From a virus, in UHGV virus genome UHGV-0094592: a stretch of DNA of 13,829 bases. One strand, written 5' to 3'. Below, piece after piece: positions 2,700 through 13,621 of this stretch. Position 1 is the stretch's first letter; the number at the start of each line of letters is the position of its first letter. The translations under genes were made by a program, and so were the position numbers. The notes under the pieces were generated by a model. The model was not told where the DNA came from and did not search any database. It saw nothing but the letters and a program-made list of their open reading frames with translations.

Positions 2700-2954
2700 A
2701 TGCATTCGGAAAATATTGCGGCTTACGTCGGGCTGGATGTGCATAAAGAAACGTTGGCGGTTGCTATTGCTGCACCTGAACGGCTTGGCGAAGTTCGTTA
2801 TTATGGTACGATTAACAACGAAGCCCAGGCTGTACGTCGATTATTTCAGAAATTGCAGGGACTTTACGGAAACATTCTTTCCTGCTATGAGGCTGGCCCC
2901 TGTGGTTTTGGGCTATATCATCAACTCACGATATTTATAATTAAATGCGCATAA
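2700..2954 (+). pseudogene. IS110-family transposase, N-terminal fragment (84 codons, truncated)
   Basis: MHSENIAAYVGLDVHKETLAVAIA...CYEAGPCGFGLYHQL carries the IS110-family N-terminal signatures (GxDxxK and CYEAxG). Strong RBS GGAGG 7 nt upstream. Full-length IS110-family transposases are several-fold longer as far as I recall, and this ORF ends after only 84 codons. Confidence 0.75.
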
Positions 2955-7796: not shown

Positions 7797-7990
7797 CTCC
7801 CCACTTTTACTACCCACTTTTTGAAATTACCCAACGTCTCCCCACTTCTTTTTTTTGTGATTCTAACGTGATGTTTTTCAATGTGTTTTTTATTCCCCAC
7901 TTTTTGGGGTATATACAGGTGGGAAAGTGGGGAATCACGTTTCAATTTTGTTAAATTCCCCACACTCCCCACTTTTACTACCCACTTTTT
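7797..7990. repeat. Putative origin of replication: iteron array (CCCCACTTTT family) flanking an AT-rich core
   Basis: 23-bp direct repeat CTCCCCACTTTTACTACCCACTTTT at 7797-7821 and 7965-7989. Additional TCCCCACTT copies at 7837-7848, 7893-7905, 7957-7966 and an inverted copy at 7924-7934. Located directly 3' of the helicase gene. Confidence 0.7.
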
Positions 7991-9404
7991 ACAGTGGGCG
8001 CACGTCATCACCGTCAATAGCAATAACGCCATCACCTTCCAGCTTGTACAGCCAGCGCCGGAAGTGTTTCATCTCATACCCCAGCTTTTTCATATCATCG
8101 CGCAACAACGGAATAGTGCATTTATCTCCGCGCTGTGTGCGTGAACGGATACAGCCCCATAGCGCGGCATGATTCTCCGTCTTGTTCCCGGCTTCCTCGA
8201 TGCGCTCCAGTTCAACGGGTGGGCGCGGCTTATCCACAACAACCAGCGACGTGATTAACTCCCCGTCAGTGTCGGTAAAAAGCTCCACCACACGTAAATC
8301 GTATGCGGCCTCTTTCAGTTCCTCCGCGTCCTTCATTTTTGTGCAGGAGATAACCAGGGCTTCACTGTCTGCACCTTCACGGCGAATACGGTATTCAGCG
8401 TCCAGAGATGCACGAAATGCACTGGAACCACGCGCCCCCTTTGTTTCATCCTTGCCGGAATGGTGAACCACCAGCACCGTGGCCCCTGTGCGGCGTTTCA
8501 GTTCGTCACATCCACGGATAAACGCCCCCATATCCCGCGCGTCATTTTCATCATTACCGCCAAAGCAACGCGCCAGCGTATCAAGAATAATCATGCGTAC
8601 CGGTTTACCCGTTTCCCGTTCAACCTGGCGGGAAGCGATGACCATTTCATCAACATCAAGCGGGACTGCCGGAAAAATCGGGCGGTTTACCAGGTACAGA
8701 TTTTCCACCCGTTCATCATTAACGATTTCCCATGCCTTGATACGGCGGGGGACACCAATGCCACCTTCACCGACAACATACATCACCGAACCATGCGCCA
8801 CCCTGCGGCCTCCCCAGTGACGGCCAGTGGCAACATGACACGCCCAGGAACACGCGAGGAACGATTTATAGGAACCGCTCGCGCCGTATGTGCTGCACAA
8901 TGAATTAGCCGGAATCACGCCCTTAACGACATAATCAAGCTGTGTGTCGTACCCTGCAGATCCAATGCTCATTGGTAGCGTGGTTTTTCGCTGGCTGTAT
9001 TGCTCGTCAGTAAGTATTTCCCCGCGCTCTGCCTGTTCGCGGATCCGTTGCAGGTAGTCGTGCCAGTTCTCCAGCTTCTGGCTGTGCATTCCATCAGGGT
9101 AATAATTCGCATCCCGTACACCTGCCGCCGCCAGCTTTTGCCCGATAGCATTAATATTTGACGGCTTGATGTGGCCTGCCTTGTACAGCCGGACACAATA
9201 GCGACCATCGTCGATAATTTTCAGGTCTGCCAGTTCGTCAAGCTGGCTGTCTCCCAGCCATACAGGCGGGACGTTATCACCAGCAAGTCGCCCGTCCTGT
9301 TCCTGCCACTGTTTCGCGTGCGCCCAGGCATCACTACCCGCAAAAATAATGACTTCGGTCATTTTGTCGTGTGGCTGTTTTTTTAAGTTCGGTGCCAGTT
9401 TCAT
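7989..9404 (-). CDS. Replication helicase, RepA/AAA_25-like P-loop NTPase with an N-terminal domain of unknown function
   Basis: 471 aa. P-loop-like YGASGSYKSF, Walker B-like RMIILDTLARCFGG and the VLVVHHSGKD motif typical of RepA/AAA_25-type helicases. RBS AGGGG. Start overlaps the upstream stop (ATGA). Confidence 0.8.
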   Translation of the reverse strand: MKLAPNLKKQPHDKMTEVIIFAGSDAWAHAKQWQEQDGRLAGDNVPPVWLGDSQLDELADLKIIDDGRYCVRLYKAGHIKPSNINAIGQKLAAAGVRDANYYPDGMHSQKLENWHDYLQRIREQAERGEILTDEQYSQRKTTLPMSIGSAGYDTQLDYVVKGVIPANSLCSTYGASGSYKSFLACSWACHVATGRHWGGRRVAHGSVMYVVGEGGIGVPRRIKAWEIVNDERVENLYLVNRPIFPAVPLDVDEMVIASRQVERETGKPVRMIILDTLARCFGGNDENDARDMGAFIRGCDELKRRTGATVLVVHHSGKDETKGARGSSAFRASLDAEYRIRREGADSEALVISCTKMKDAEELKEAAYDLRVVELFTDTDGELITSLVVVDKPRPPVELERIEEAGNKTENHAALWGCIRSRTQRGDKCTIPLLRDDMKKLGYEMKHFRRWLYKLEGDGVIAIDGDDVRPL

Positions 9405-10127: not shown

Positions 10128-10356
10128 GGCTCACCACCTCCATATCAGCCATGATAATTTTGCTGGCCTCATTCAGTGCCATATCAGCACTAAGTTGCAT
10201 TACAGCCAGTGAATGAGGAACGAAAGCCCCGGCATATTCTGTTTCACTGGTAGCGTGCTTATGCGCCCTGTCCGCGATAACAGAAATATCAATCAGCGCA
10301 TCAATCAGTGTTTTGATTGCTTCGGCGGCTGCGTCCGGACGGGTGTTATTGCACAT
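10120..10356 (-). CDS. Hypothetical protein (78 aa)
   Basis: RBS GGGGG upstream of ATG 10356; 8-nt overlap with the downstream gene. Confidence 0.55.
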   Translation of the reverse strand: MCNNTRPDAAAEAIKTLIDALIDISVIADRAHKHATSETEYAGAFVPHSLAVMQLSADMALNEASKIIMADMEVVSHE

Positions 10357-10552
10357 GGTGCACCCCCTGACGAATACGGGCGGCGAATACCATCACGCAG
10401 CCAGCCGGTGATTGCTGACGGGCTTCCTGTTCGCTGGTGGCCTCAATGGTAATCACGCGCGGTTGTGCCGTACTCAGGGCGATAAAACGCCAGATGTATT
10501 TATTCAGGTTGTGCGAGTCCCGCCCTTGCGGGTGTATGGTATGATTTCTCAT
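10346..10552 (-). CDS. Hypothetical protein (68 aa), first gene of the replication-module operon (ORF track lists a TTG-start version 10346..10642)
   Basis: ATG at 10552 is preceded by GAGG. The longer version would extend into the operator/promoter region. Confidence 0.5.
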   Translation of the reverse strand: MRNHTIHPQGRDSHNLNKYIWRFIALSTAQPRVITIEATSEQEARQQSPAGCVMVFAARIRQGVHHVQ

Positions 10553-10571
10553 AGCAGCCTCGATAATCTTG

Positions 10572-11762
10572 CTATCGTTGGTGGTTAGACGCCCCGTATG
10601 TGTTTCCGGCACTGCGGGGCGTTGCTCTTTGTATTTCAACAATTCTTTTGGTGTGTTTCATGTTATGAGCGCATGAAACACACGTCAAGGCTTTTTGTAT
10701 TTCTTTTTTTGTGTATACTGAAACACACCGATGATTAGGAGTTTCAGAAATGGCAACGGCTAACAAAAACGCAAAATCACAACTGACAACTGTCAGAGTC
10801 CCACTAGATGTTATGCAAGGGATGGAATCCGTTAAGCTGGACGGCGAAAGCAATGCCGGATTTATCGTAACCGCCATGCGCGGAGAAATAGCCCGCCGCC
10901 AAGCAGAAGGCAGCGGAGAAAATCCCCTTGTGTCGTCACTGGATGCCCTGGCTAAGGTCGAACAAATCGGCATCAAAGCAGCGGAAGAAATCGGGCAGCT
11001 TGTCACCGTTGCACGCGAAGAACTCCAGCGTCGCAAGACCAAAGAACCAGAGTAATCACCATCAGCGCCGTGGTGTAAGGTATTACGGCGCATTGCTATG
11101 CAGGACAACACAATGACCGATAAAGAATTGACCAAAACATTATCACCGGCACGGAAAAGACGGCGCAGAAAGATAGAGCATGAATCAGAAAGATTCGCGC
11201 CATGTGCTTTTGCTCTTGAGAAATTCCTTAAAGAGCACAGGAAAAAGCTCTCGTTGCAAACCTTGGAACGAACCAAATCTGACTGATCACATTGCCCACC
11301 AGCCGCAAATGTGGCATTGTTGGTGATGCTCATGCGTTGGGGATAACGTGTAGCTTGTGTCGAGGGGCCACCGTAGCGGGTGGCCTTTGTTTTGCCTGTT
11401 ATCCGGCAATTGTGGCGCTTCGCCACACGGTTGATATAATCCCACTGCTCAGATTCATTTTTTGCGCAGTAGGTTAATTGTTCACAAAGGCGCTCCGGCA
11501 ACGGGGCGCTTTTTGTTTTTATTAGTTTGTAGAAACCTGACTCAGAGATAATGCTCATATTCTGATTGCCGTCAGGGGTGTAAGTTAAATTTACTCCCTT
11601 TTTATCATCAAACATCTGCAACGCTCTGGCGTTAACAATATTGGTTTCACTCCCGCCAGTAAGGCCGGAAATAACCGGAATAATTTCGGCAAAATTTTGC
11701 AGATTCTGTTTTTCAGGACGAACGAAGCCCCGCCCTTGTTCGGGAGAATATCCAGTATTCAT
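10572..11762 (-). CDS. Long open frame; only the N-terminal ~100 codons (from ATG 11762) look protein-like, with a possible Bro-N/KilA-N-like motif. The rest is probably non-coding or a pseudogene remnant
   Basis: N-terminus contains IISESGFYKLIKTKS, resembling a Bro-N-type motif as I recall it. The C-terminal two thirds are Ser/Cys/Arg-rich and antisense to two plus-strand ORFs with good RBSs, and span two plus-oriented terminators. Confidence 0.3.
   Translation of the reverse strand: MNTGYSPEQGRGFVRPEKQNLQNFAEIIPVISGLTGGSETNIVNARALQMFDDKKGVNLTYTPDGNQNMSIISESGFYKLIKTKSAPLPERLCEQLTYCAKNESEQWDYINRVAKRHNCRITGKTKATRYGGPSTQATRYPQRMSITNNATFAAGGQCDQSDLVRSKVCNESFFLCSLRNFSRAKAHGANLSDSCSIFLRRLFRAGDNVLVNSLSVIVLSCIAMRRNTLHHGADGDYSGSLVLRRWSSSRATVTSCPISSAALMPICSTLARASSDDTRGFSPLPSAWRRAISPRMAVTINPALLSPSSLTDSIPCITSSGTLTVVSCDFAFLLAVAISETPNHRCVSVYTKKEIQKALTCVSCAHNMKHTKRIVEIQRATPRSAGNTYGASNHQR
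10651..10688 (-). promoter_or_regulatory. Sigma70-like promoter for the minus-strand operon (TTGACG-17-TAACAT) fully overlapped by a 12-bp inverted-repeat operator
   Basis: Minus strand -35 TTGACG (10688..10683) and -10 TAACAT (10665..10660). Operator GTGTGTTTCATG-9bp-CATGAAACACAC spans 10651-10683. Related GAAACACA sites lie at 10720-10728 and in the hairpin loop at 10596-10627. Confidence 0.6.
10750..11055 (+). CDS. Hypothetical regulator-like protein (101 aa), divergently transcribed from the island operons; candidate repressor
   Basis: Strong RBS TAGGAG 8 nt upstream. Plausible -10 TATACT (10714-10719) with an operator half-site at the predicted start. Balanced composition; N-terminal beta-strand plus helix pattern (TTVRVPLDVMQGMESVKL) reminiscent of ribbon-helix-helix proteins. 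Confidence 0.6.
   Translation: MATANKNAKSQLTTVRVPLDVMQGMESVKLDGESNAGFIVTAMRGEIARRQAEGSGENPLVSSLDALAKVEQIGIKAAEEIGQLVTVAREELQRRKTKEPE
11113..11286 (+). CDS. Hypothetical small basic protein (57 aa; ORF track lists 11098..11286)
   Basis: ATG at 11113 has AGGA 7 nt upstream; very basic (RKRRRRK) N-terminal segment. Confidence 0.45.
   Translation: MTDKELTKTLSPARKRRRRKIEHESERFAPCAFALEKFLKEHRKKLSLQTLERTKSD
11366..11393 (+). terminator. Rho-independent terminator (stem GGCCACC/GGTGGCC, then TTTGTTTT) for the plus-strand unit
   Basis: Perfect 7-bp stem with 6-nt loop and a T-rich tail on the plus strand. Confidence 0.6.
11490..11520 (+). terminator. Second plus-strand rho-independent terminator (stem GCGCTCCG/CGGGGCGC, GCAA tetraloop, TTTTTGTTTTT)
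   Basis: 8-bp stem with one G-U pair, GNRA-type loop, and 11-nt T-rich tail. Confidence 0.65.
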
Positions 11763-11814
11763 GGTTAGATCTCTGTATTAGTGGATGGGTGGCGGCTGTG
11801 TGCCGCCAGCCTGA

Positions 11815-12003
11815 TTAGTGAACTGCCTCGCAGCTTTCCTTCCATGCCAGAACTTCGGATAAAGACCAGCCAACGGAACGACCGCCGAGCTTACGCCGTG
11901 ATGGGAATTGTCCGGTTTTTTCCAGGCGGTACCGACATGAACGGCTCAGGCCTGTAAGTTGCTGACATTCTTTTTCACGTATAAAGCGATCTGTGCTTAA
12001 CAC
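11815..12003 (-). CDS. alpA: AlpA-family (prophage CP4-57-type) transcriptional regulator, 62 aa from GTG start
   Basis: Motif ...CQQLTGLSRSCRYRLEKTGQFPSRRKLGGRSVGWSLSEVLAWKESC is the AlpA/Vis-type HTH signature. GTG at 12003 is preceded by AGGGGGA. ORF track lists a longer 11815..12171 version. Confidence 0.8.
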   Translation of the reverse strand: MLSTDRFIREKECQQLTGLSRSCRYRLEKTGQFPSRRKLGGRSVGWSLSEVLAWKESCEAVH

Positions 12004-12288
12004 AATTCCCCCTTTGATATTTCTTAAAGAGTTATTTGGTGTCCTATTGTGTTGTGGTGCGTCGGATTGTGTCAGGGTGTTTATGGAATGGCAAACACTG
12101 GCGGCGGTCATTTTACAGAAGTGTGGTAATGAGAATAAAAACTCTTTTAATTCATTGTGGTGCAAAGGCATAAAATTCTGTTTTTACGCCTTTTTTACAT
12201 GTTTTTAAGAGTGATTCGCCAATGTACAAAAAGCCAGTAAAACGACTGAAAATCAACTTTTTAGGGTGTCAGTCAGATGTTAATCAAG

Positions 12289-12346
12289 TTTGTTCCAGAT
12301 TGTTCGCCGTTGTTCGTCGTGGTGTCTCGTTGTTTCACGTTGTGTC
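12289..12346. promoter_or_regulatory. Cluster of TTGTTCG-like direct repeats between int and alpA; candidate regulator binding sites
   Basis: TGTTCC 12291, TTGTTCG 12300, TTGTTCG 12310 (10-bp spacing), TTGTTTC 12330, TTGTGTC 12340. Confidence 0.4.
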
Positions 12347-12370: not shown

Positions 12371-13621
12371 TTATATTTCTCTGGCTATTGGCAGTGTGGT
12401 TACGTTTTTGTGAGTACCCGCCAGTATCTCTAACCGCTCTGTCCACATGTCCAGCGCATTACGTTTCGCATCGAGATAACGGGAGTGGTTATAGACTCGC
12501 TGCATCCCTGGCATCTGGTGAGCGGTGAGTTGTTCGACAATATGCGGATCCACGCCTAAATCGTTCAGCATCGTGGTAAACGTGCGCCGTATATCGTGTA
12601 GTGACCAGTGCGGATGGTTTAATTTTTTGTGCATGAATCTGCCGTATTGCGACACACTGGCTTCCTGTTTCAGTTCCCCGAGTAATAGCCCTGTGTGTCT
12701 GTTCTGCTCCACCAGCTGCGTGACGAACGGTAAAATGCTTTCCGGTATTGGCCTGAATATGGCGACCTTCGTTTTGCTGTGCTCTTTCGGTACTGTCCAG
12801 AGCATTTCCTTAAAATCCCACTCCCTGATCTCCGATAATCTCAGTTCTCCGGTTCGGCAGCCGAACACAATCAGGAGGCGGATTAGTGCGCTGTAGTAGG
12901 GCGGGAATATTTTTTTATCCAGCGCCTGTAATAATTCGCCAAGTTCTTTGTTGCTCAGCACGCGTTCGCTTATGCCTGGTTTTTTGCCAACGTCCACCAC
13001 GTTAAGATCATCCAGAACGTTACTGACTGCGTAGCGACGTTTACGGCAGAACTTAAGCGCCTGTTTACACGCCTGCATCATGTGACCAGACGTTACAGGG
13101 GATTTTTTGCGTATCCGGTCAAAACAGGCCAGCCAGTGACGTAACTCGCATTTATCCAGTGGCATATTGCCAATATGCTGTATGACGTGATTATTCAGGC
13201 GGCTTTTCAGGCATACGTAATCGACACGGTTTTCCTTTACGTGCATTTCCAGCCAGTAGCTGATCGCATCACCCACCGTTACCGGCTTTAGTGCTTCCTG
13301 TATGGAGTAATTAAGCTCATGGCGTGGATTTTTTCCTTCTGCCAGCCATGCGCGACACTGTGCCGCTTTTTCCCTGGCTGCTTTCAGGCTCAGATCAGGA
13401 TAATTTCCCAGCTTCAGGCGTTCCGGTGATACCTGGCGTCCAGCTCCTGCTCTGTAGGTGAAATACCAGGTTAATAAGCCGCTGGTGGAATGCCTGACGC
13501 TCAGGTTTCCACCGTCATTAAGAAATGTGGTTTTTGGGGCTGGTGTGCCGTTGATTTTTCTTAGCTGTGTATCGCTCAGTTTGTTAAGTGCTCTGCTCAT
13601 AATTTTGAATCCGGTCATCAC
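12371..13621 (-). CDS. int: Tyrosine recombinase / integrase, P4-type
   Basis: 416-codon ORF. N-terminal region LSDTQLRKI...YPDLSLKAAREKAAQ resembles P4-family integrase N-termini. C-terminal catalytic motifs include HDIRRTF (HxxR) and a tyrosine within RVYNHSRYLD. ORF-track start is GTG 13621; in-frame ATGs at 13618 and 13600 are alternative starts. Confidence 0.9.
   Translation of the reverse strand: MMTGFKIMSRALNKLSDTQLRKINGTPAPKTTFLNDGGNLSVRHSTSGLLTWYFTYRAGAGRQVSPERLKLGNYPDLSLKAAREKAAQCRAWLAEGKNPRHELNYSIQEALKPVTVGDAISYWLEMHVKENRVDYVCLKSRLNNHVIQHIGNMPLDKCELRHWLACFDRIRKKSPVTSGHMMQACKQALKFCRKRRYAVSNVLDDLNVVDVGKKPGISERVLSNKELGELLQALDKKIFPPYYSALIRLLIVFGCRTGELRLSEIREWDFKEMLWTVPKEHSKTKVAIFRPIPESILPFVTQLVEQNRHTGLLLGELKQEASVSQYGRFMHKKLNHPHWSLHDIRRTFTTMLNDLGVDPHIVEQLTAHQMPGMQRVYNHSRYLDAKRNALDMWTERLEILAGTHKNVTTLPIAREI

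Follow-up and report, generated by a model that had tools for sequence, protein, structure and literature searches.

The virus genome UHGV-0094592 (the window, meaning the whole stretch of 13,829 nucleotides analysed here) is a capsid-encoding phage-inducible chromosomal island (PICI), a phage satellite of Escherichia coli of 13.8 kb. Between its alpA gene (11815–12003, minus strand) and an icd-like gene (10346–10552, minus strand) lies an open reading frame (ORF) of 396 codons (10572–11762, minus strand). This long frame is conserved in every relative sampled, in more than ten genera, and is not a local accident. By analogy with phage P4 we propose, with a probability of about 0.65, that it is an eta-like frame of the Bro zone of P4/PICI-type satellites, kept open for anti-polarity translation.

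The long ORF begins with the ATG at 11760–11762 and ends with the TAG at 10572–10574 (frame p mod 3 = 0). As the initial annotation had stated, it runs antisense to two plus-strand genes, ylcI and a 62-codon ORF (ORF62), and across two plus-oriented hairpins that resemble intrinsic terminators (11363–11388 and 11486–11513, each followed by a T-run). There are no in-frame stop codons in the 1191 nt of 10572–11762, compared with 26 and 21 in the other two minus-strand frames. The probability of 396 open codons, computed from base composition, is about 1.6e-9, far beyond chance, and a chance ORF is rejected. Beyond its N-terminus the frame reads the opposite strand of plus-strand genes and terminators that are themselves well supported, as had also been recognised, and plus-strand coding sequence accounts for only 495 of the 1191 nt. 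ylcI and ORF62 share one plus-strand frame and their wobble positions therefore coincide with those of the long frame.

The gene order alpA, long ORF, icd and repA (7989–9404, encoding a RepA-family helicase), all on the minus strand, places the long ORF in the position of an eta-type frame. The alpA gene, directly upstream of the long ORF, is a homologue of P4 vis/ORF88 (Pfam Phage_AlpA, E = 1.3e-17) and is annotated by the Prokaryotic Genome Annotation Pipeline (PGAP). The icd-like gene, also annotated by PGAP, matches the NCBIfam model phage_ICD_like (NF033153) with 69.8 bits against a cut-off of 25 and is a homologue of P4 kil. The NCBIfam hidden Markov model was needed for this homology; a tblastn search with Icd against GenBank phages gave only one satellite-like record and did not detect P4 at the sequence level.

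Conservation of the open frame

A protein search with the long ORF gave about 1500 relatives, many of 400–470 residues, collinear over 98% of the query with 60–86% identity, and most running in frame into an Icd-like C-terminus. Because protein matches favour long ORFs, loci were then sampled blind to the frame. For species other than E. coli the 68-residue Icd protein alone was used as the query, giving nine loci (E. ruysiae, Cedecea, Citrobacter, Rahnella, Enterobacter, Rosenbergiella, Superficieibacter, Intestinirhabdus and Tenebrionibacter). Eight of these have upstream sequence, and in all eight the icd frame is open for 193–310 codons upstream. For E. coli, six loci were taken at even steps from the 1449 genomes with an icd match, and the icd frame is open for 235–378 codons upstream in all six; the open stretch reaches precisely to the alpA stop codon in three, into the 3′ end of alpA in two and into the end of a full BRO-N gene in one. 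The loci from viral collections that were anchored on ylcI have icd adjacent in every case (80/80), with an antisense frame open for 179–819 codons, the shortest of these being limited by contig ends. The ylcI-anchored loci of Photorhabdus, Yersinia and Edwardsiella have 391, 301 and 298 open codons, respectively, compared with 21–108 in the other phases, and bring the number of ylcI-anchored loci to 83. All 14 icd-anchored relatives, and most of the ylcI-anchored ones, close the frame with an in-frame Icd domain, but the window does not. The initial annotation had treated the frame as an anomaly of this locus, possibly a truncated antirepressor gene merely missing its stop; the collinear frames in relatives, and the open frame in all of the loci sampled without regard to it, contradict that view.

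Outside the antisense genes and the icd domain lie 9270 nt, summed over 16 loci, with 190 and 216 stop codons in the two other frames; at that rate the open frame should hold about a dozen per locus. The DLP12-type ylcI genes of lambdoid prophages, which do not have icd as a neighbour, were used as a control. In these the same antisense phase is open for only 39–90 codons, with 0–1 stops inside the 64-codon lambdoid gene compared with 3–5 in the other phases. As the controls extend no further than this, the 'shadow' of ylcI explains the open frame only in part, roughly over the ylcI segment, and not over the terminators, the 3′ untranslated region, the operator/promoter spacer or the head of the frame.

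In most loci and genera the first Met of the frame is preceded by a Shine-Dalgarno (SD)-like sequence (GGAGG, AGGAG or GGGGG), and in most loci it lies 2–4 codons ahead of a KTKA motif, encoded by the reverse complement of the T-run and stem of the terminator of ylcI (T1). Loci L005, L007, L008, L009 and L015/L016 are examples in which KTKA stands beside the first Met. The frame in relatives abuts or overlaps the alpA stop and has a good SD. In the window the ancestral start is internal, at residues ~121–126, where the ATG has changed to ATA, and an extra module, made up of a Bro-N remnant and the second terminator, lies ahead of it.

The first 17 residues of the long ORF (…GRGFVRPE) are invariant even where the sequence that follows differs between relatives, which suggests a conserved nucleic-acid element at the start of the ORF. 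The 11763–11814 interval between the alpA stop and the ATG contains a GC-rich hairpin (GGCGGC ACACA GCCGCC, plus strand, 11789–11805) that has no T-run. A further observation concerns locus L082 (961–3421, minus strand), a relative that has a tandem duplication of the whole ylcI-antisense module, plus an ash/C4-type segment, and keeps a single 819-codon frame ending in Icd.

Content of the frame and the target of selection

The initial annotation had assigned the N-terminus of the long ORF to a KilA-N/Bro-N-type domain. The Bro-N part of this assignment stands, as a degenerate remnant (11490–11618, minus strand; residues 49–91, with the motif IISESGFYKLI), while KilA-N is not supported, the long ORF having no KilA-N match in Pfam, PHROGs or NCBIfam. 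The score against Pfam Bro-N (PF02498) is 14.5 bits, below the cut-off of 25.6, and the match (residues 52–91) covers only profile positions 37–85 of 96. Matches to PHROG Ant families (E ~5e-5) are likewise confined to residues 49–90. The long ORF shares 47% identity over 47 residues with the central part of a 193-residue BRO-N protein encoded at the same position in a satellite of O157:H7 (L013:3202–3783, minus strand), and this protein scores 68 bits over profile positions 1–96. In some relatives the serine of the motif is mutated (ISEPGF).

Full Bro-N or AntA genes occupy the position of the remnant in satellites of O157:H7, Photorhabdus, Yersinia and Edwardsiella. Those of L013, L184, L185 and L186 are complete and encode 193–280 residues; their 3′ end overlaps the start of a separate eta-like frame in L013, L184 and L185, and in L186 the eta-like frame begins ~270 nt downstream of the Bro-N gene. 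As judged from such satellites, which have both a complete gene and a separate open frame, the Bro gene and the stop-free frame are distinct units that have become fused in the window.

The ylcI/ynfO-family gene (10750–11055, plus strand) is nested antisense in the long frame and has a strong SD. Its product matches NCBIfam YlcI_YnfO_N (NF041551/DUF3950) with 63.2 bits (cut-off of 30) and PHROG 6522 with E = 1e-63. Of the 16 loci examined, 15 have the gene in the same phase; none was detected in L007. A model of YlcI has an extended-helix-helix order followed by a long C-terminal helix, and some homologues are named 'Arc-like' in UniRef. The best sequence match of the YlcI profile in the PDB is the Arc repressor of P22, which is not significant (E = 0.6), and a ribbon-helix-helix (RHH) fold is thus only suggested. 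A tblastn search of GenBank phages with YlcI gave no matches. ORF62 (11098–11286, plus strand) matches PHROG 21027 (E = 1.9e-14), is not annotated by PGAP and is present or absent depending on the relative.

T1 (11363–11395, plus strand) is the intrinsic terminator at the end of the ylcI-ORF62 transcript, and its reverse complement reads GKTKA in the long frame. In minimal loci the frame begins exactly across from the plus-strand terminators. The region that ends in the second terminator (T2, a strong one; 11486–11513 and its T-run) may correspond to an antisense small RNA (sRNA) (11432–11524, plus strand) of ~75 nt, with an invariant extended −10 element, TGATATAAT, at 11432–11440; this identification is inference only. 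The TGATATAAT element and the body of the candidate are conserved in at least 14 variants with varying flanks, and the predicted fold has an energy of −25.5 kcal/mol (z = −3.9). The candidate matches no Rfam family, and a covariation analysis gave no compensatory pairs, there being too little variation. In some relatives the candidate is antisense to the opening ~25 codons of the long frame.

Between ylcI and icd, still inside the long frame, are the repeats TGTGTTTC/GAAACACA at 10599, 10652, 10675 and 10720 (10599–10728). Their 9-mer occurs three times compared with 0.14 expected, and two of the copies form a perfect palindrome of 12 bp (10651–10662/10672–10683). The arrangement resembles an operator, and the repeats are likely to be bound by YlcI or AlpA. 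They are overlapped by a promoter-like sequence on the minus strand, TTGACG-17-TAACAT (−35 at 10688–10683, −10 at 10665–10660), which, being inside the long frame, would be analogous to the P4 PLE promoter inside eta.

Mean pairwise differences at codon positions 1, 2 and 3 of 15 diverged ylcI genes are 0.39, 0.31 and 0.59, respectively. This is a normal coding pattern for ylcI and means that position 2 of the long frame varies more than its position 1 (0.39 versus 0.31), although the coinciding wobble positions limit the power of such a substitution test for dual coding. Amino-acid constraint in both frames, which is the mark of antisense dual coding, was not found, and the pattern fits YlcI. 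The corresponding position differences for ORF62 are 18/14/23. In a comparison of the window with three relatives, codon periodicity of the long frame differs between segments, with a weak third-position excess of substitutions in codons 1–95 (4/3/8) and none in codons 96–160 (13/8/5). The cassettes can be wholly different between loci while the frame persists, even across the 819-codon tandem duplication, and the spacer between ylcI and icd is wholly different between loci and always open. The cassettes were too dissimilar for an indel-length test on this spacer, for which only a crude count of length modulo three was possible. Because the position patterns fit YlcI and the differing spacers stay open, it appears that openness is maintained and that the amino-acid sequence of the long frame is essentially unconstrained; selection at the amino-acid level, as far as substitution patterns tell, is on the antisense YlcI and not on the long frame. 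Among the options put forward initially, a genuinely overprinted region comes closest, in that the openness and the SD-like start are conserved, but the amino-acid sequence is not.

Comparison with P4 and competing explanations

In P4 (L183), ORF88/vis, the homologue of alpA, is followed by an overlapping frame of 214 codons (8168–8812, minus strand). This frame contains the Rfam isrK and C4 RNAs, and its C-terminus matches phage_ICD_like (NF033153) with 73.1 bits (E = 1.4e-20); it is eta, with kil nested at its end. The two elements have in common the succession of an alpA/vis homologue, a long frame, a Kil/Icd-like domain and replication genes, and in both the frame spans the immunity/promoter region of the element. 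There are also clear differences. The P4 frame holds the co-oriented immunity RNAs isrK/seqA and C4/CI, which the frame of the window does not have, and the latter instead runs antisense through the ylcI cassette, which codes for protein and has terminators of its own. The frame of the window is also twice the length, has the Bro-N remnant at its start, begins 52 nt after alpA instead of overlapping it and stops 19 nt before icd, whereas P4 kil is nested in the frame. Locus L066, like P4, carries both C4 and isrK.

According to Mageeney et al. 2023 (PMC10111431), who cite Forti et al. 1999 (J Bacteriol 181:5225), full-length Eta of P4 arises only from the upstream late promoter and translation of eta as such prevents premature transcription termination. 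An open frame that is conserved without constraint on its sequence matches this published role. The same source describes a corresponding 'Bro zone' in PICIs, the ORFs of which are regarded as domain-swapping proteins and sometimes contain CI/seqA homologues (PMC10111431). The window has the same zone layout with the long ORF in the Bro zone, but here the 'protein' is mostly antisense translation of ylcI/ORF62 and of non-coding elements, and an antisense gene inside Bro-zone ORFs is not mentioned in PMC10111431 (no occurrences of 'antisense'). The kind of frame is thus already known from P4 eta/kil and the PICI Bro zone. Three features were not found described in the literature searched, namely an RHH gene nested antisense in a fixed phase, a lack of C4/isrK and the conservation of the frame in every locus sampled across Enterobacterales; searches on Icd-like/AlpA and YlcI/YnfO turned up no account of the long frame or of ylcI lying antisense.

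Transcription from alpA must cross ~1.2 kb of an opposing regulatory cassette (ylcI, ORF62, two terminators and the operator/promoter) before it reaches icd/kil and the replication genes. If one frame of the operon strand is kept free of stops, ribosomes starting just after alpA could translate through to icd. After induction, transcripts from the alpA promoter would be translated through the frame, and the ribosomes would block Rho termination within the antisense cassette, by analogy with P4 eta, for which the terminator concerned, timm, is Rho-dependent. Induced transcription would in this way override the immunity of the element. The ribosomes would also deliver translation to icd, by fusion or by reinitiation. 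Because the frame of the window ends 19 nt ahead of the icd ATG, and icd has its own SD (GAGG), the link there would be termination-reinitiation coupling and not an in-frame fusion. In the repressed state, YlcI bound at the repeats, plus-strand RNAs pairing with the frame, or both would keep it untranslated. Antisense regulation of the frame, one of the options put forward initially, is plausible.

A more tentative extension, which we regard as possible but doubtful, is that these satellites form a class in which the trans-acting immunity RNA of P4 has been replaced by a cis-antisense module within the eta-like frame. The module would consist of an RHH repressor gene, ylcI, whose overlap with the frame is fixed and wobble-coincident, and the 3′ end of the ylcI mRNA, the 75-nt sRNA or both would be complementary to the first part of the eta-like ORF. 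By pairing there, these RNAs would stop the frame from being translated, leave the transcript open to Rho and hold the island silent, and AlpA-driven transcription with efficient translation would override the antisense block. On this extended reading a stop-free frame of several hundred codons, conserved across Enterobacterales, would be selected solely for being translated, and a natural protein-coding gene would double as an antisense regulator of the frame that it overlaps.

Several observations weigh against the eta-like reading. In the window 52 nt without overlap separate the alpA stop from the ATG of the long ORF, the SD of the long ORF is weak (CAGAG), and icd is in another frame and not fused to it, the stop lying 19 nt ahead of the icd ATG. 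Photorhabdus and Yersinia likewise have a stop 18–19 nt ahead of the following ATG, however, and this layout may for that reason be an alternative design of coupling rather than decay. Rfam searches of the whole window at the gathering score and of 10200–12300 at E ≤ 1 detected neither C4 nor isrK nor any other family, and the C/G profile of the minus-strand RNA shows no clear rut-like C>G signature. Moreover, if the promoter-like site at 10660–10688 drives icd alone, read-through from alpA may matter less.

Four other explanations were considered. The frame could be translated mainly to manage antisense pairing with the ylcI mRNA or the sRNA, or to supply icd with ribosomes through coupling, in either case without Rho. 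The terminators opposite the frame start in minimal loci, the conserved sRNA candidate and the recurrent stop shortly before the next ATG would fit this explanation, but it overlaps largely with an eta-like anti-polarity role and the P4 precedent points to Rho. We consider it unlikely.

It is also improbable that the long ORF encodes a functional multi-domain 'Bro-network' protein, with a Bro-N-like head, a variable middle and an Icd/Kil tail, that is dual-coding with ylcI. Proteins of 400–470 residues are annotated as 'Icd-like' by PGAP and others, such ORFs are treated as domain-swapping Bro-network proteins in PMC10111431, and the third-position excess in codons 1–95 and the coinciding wobble, the least constraining phase for dual coding, would agree with a protein. 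The position-specific variability, however, fits YlcI, and codons 96–160 have no codon pattern. The Ser/Cys/Arg-rich middle is antisense sequence, exchanged as a whole between loci, family models match nothing but the Icd tail, the Bro-N part is below threshold with both ends of the domain missing, and in the window the frame and Icd are separated.

A decaying pseudogene, in which a truncated Bro/Ant antirepressor gene has lost its stop and is followed by functionless read-through, is very improbable. The degenerate Bro-N fragment at the N-terminus, the full Bro-N/AntA genes at the same position elsewhere and the mutated serine of the motif are what such decay would leave, but they account for the head and not for the ~300 stop-free codons that follow; the same frame occurs in loci that never had a Bro remnant (L015, L016 and other genera), and some loci have a complete Bro/AntA gene as well as a separate open frame. 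Simple loss of a stop is rejected as the whole explanation on the further open codons and the remnant-free loci. A passive 'shadow' ORF, produced by plus-strand codon and amino-acid composition (Tyr and His absent, T-ending codons before Gln rare) and lengthened by chance, has hardly any credibility and is rejected in its pure form, since, despite the low number of stops in this phase of the lambdoid ylcI and the frame shared by ylcI and ORF62, the lambdoid controls are soon closed, plus-strand coding covers less than half of the ORF, the ~9.3 kb of non-overlapping sequence is open and the frame is kept in every sampled locus.

If the eta-like reading is correct, an oddity of annotation would become a testable regulatory design in which ribosomes apparently escort RNA polymerase through an opposing cassette. 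The P4 eta/kil paradigm would extend to capsid-forming PICIs and to elements without C4/isrK, with the antisense RHH gene and the candidate sRNA pointing to a different immunity module. The 'Icd-like' proteins of 400–470 residues in databases, many 'pseudogene' fragments and perhaps some 'Bro-network domains' are largely antisense translations.

Two other immunity regions are comparable in part. The immI region of P22 (arc, mnt, ant and sar RNA) combines RHH repressors, an antirepressor gene and a small cis-antisense RNA; it is not known to have a long anti-polarity frame, and its likeness to the window would be at the level of modules only. In P1 immI the order is c4 RNA, icd and ant, and translation of icd is needed for transcription to reach the downstream genes. 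As in the window, an Icd-family gene is associated with an Ant/Bro antirepressor gene, and translation of P1 icd is controlled by an antisense-type RNA. P1 immI is not known to have a long upstream frame or an antisense protein gene, whereas in the window the Bro remnant is upstream of icd and C4 was not found. The P1 immI operon (c4 - icd - ant) was reportedly described by Biere et al. in 1992 (Genes Dev).

An observation on P4 itself concerns the Pfam family Phage_ASH (PF10554), which matches residues 37–161 of the P4 eta frame and does not match the P4 epsilon gene (7888–8175); the isrK and C4/CI matches fall in the same stretch of eta DNA. A survey of P4-like satellites lists PF10554 as the 'epsilon' profile (PMC8628076, Methods). 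Judging from the position of the match, this marker may actually track the eta/cI region.

Other features of the island

The zones of this PICI are Integration (int and alpA), Bro, Replication (repA) and Late (capsid and terS), with the long ORF filling the Bro zone. The int gene is at 12371–13621 (minus strand). The minus strand also encodes a single-stranded DNA-binding protein (SSB), the major capsid, decoration and small-terminase (terS) proteins and several small ORFs. A scan of the window for transfer RNA and transfer-messenger RNA genes gave no matches.

Positions 10300–12200 are 100% identical to an island in several E. coli chromosomes, and in strain WCHEC020032 the matching island lies between smrA and abgR; clone D i2 is another carrier. 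The PGAP record of the WCHEC020032 island leaves 11056–11814 without annotation, and other annotators label the 396-residue ORF as a hypothetical protein.

The region 1429–2954 is part of the left end of the window, which has a higher GC content. Its ORFs at 1429–1722, 1776–2387 and 2451–2636 (all minus strand) and 2700–2954 (plus strand) resemble what we take to be fragments of insertion sequences, presumably pieces of IS66-family accessory and transposase genes and an IS110-like N-terminus.

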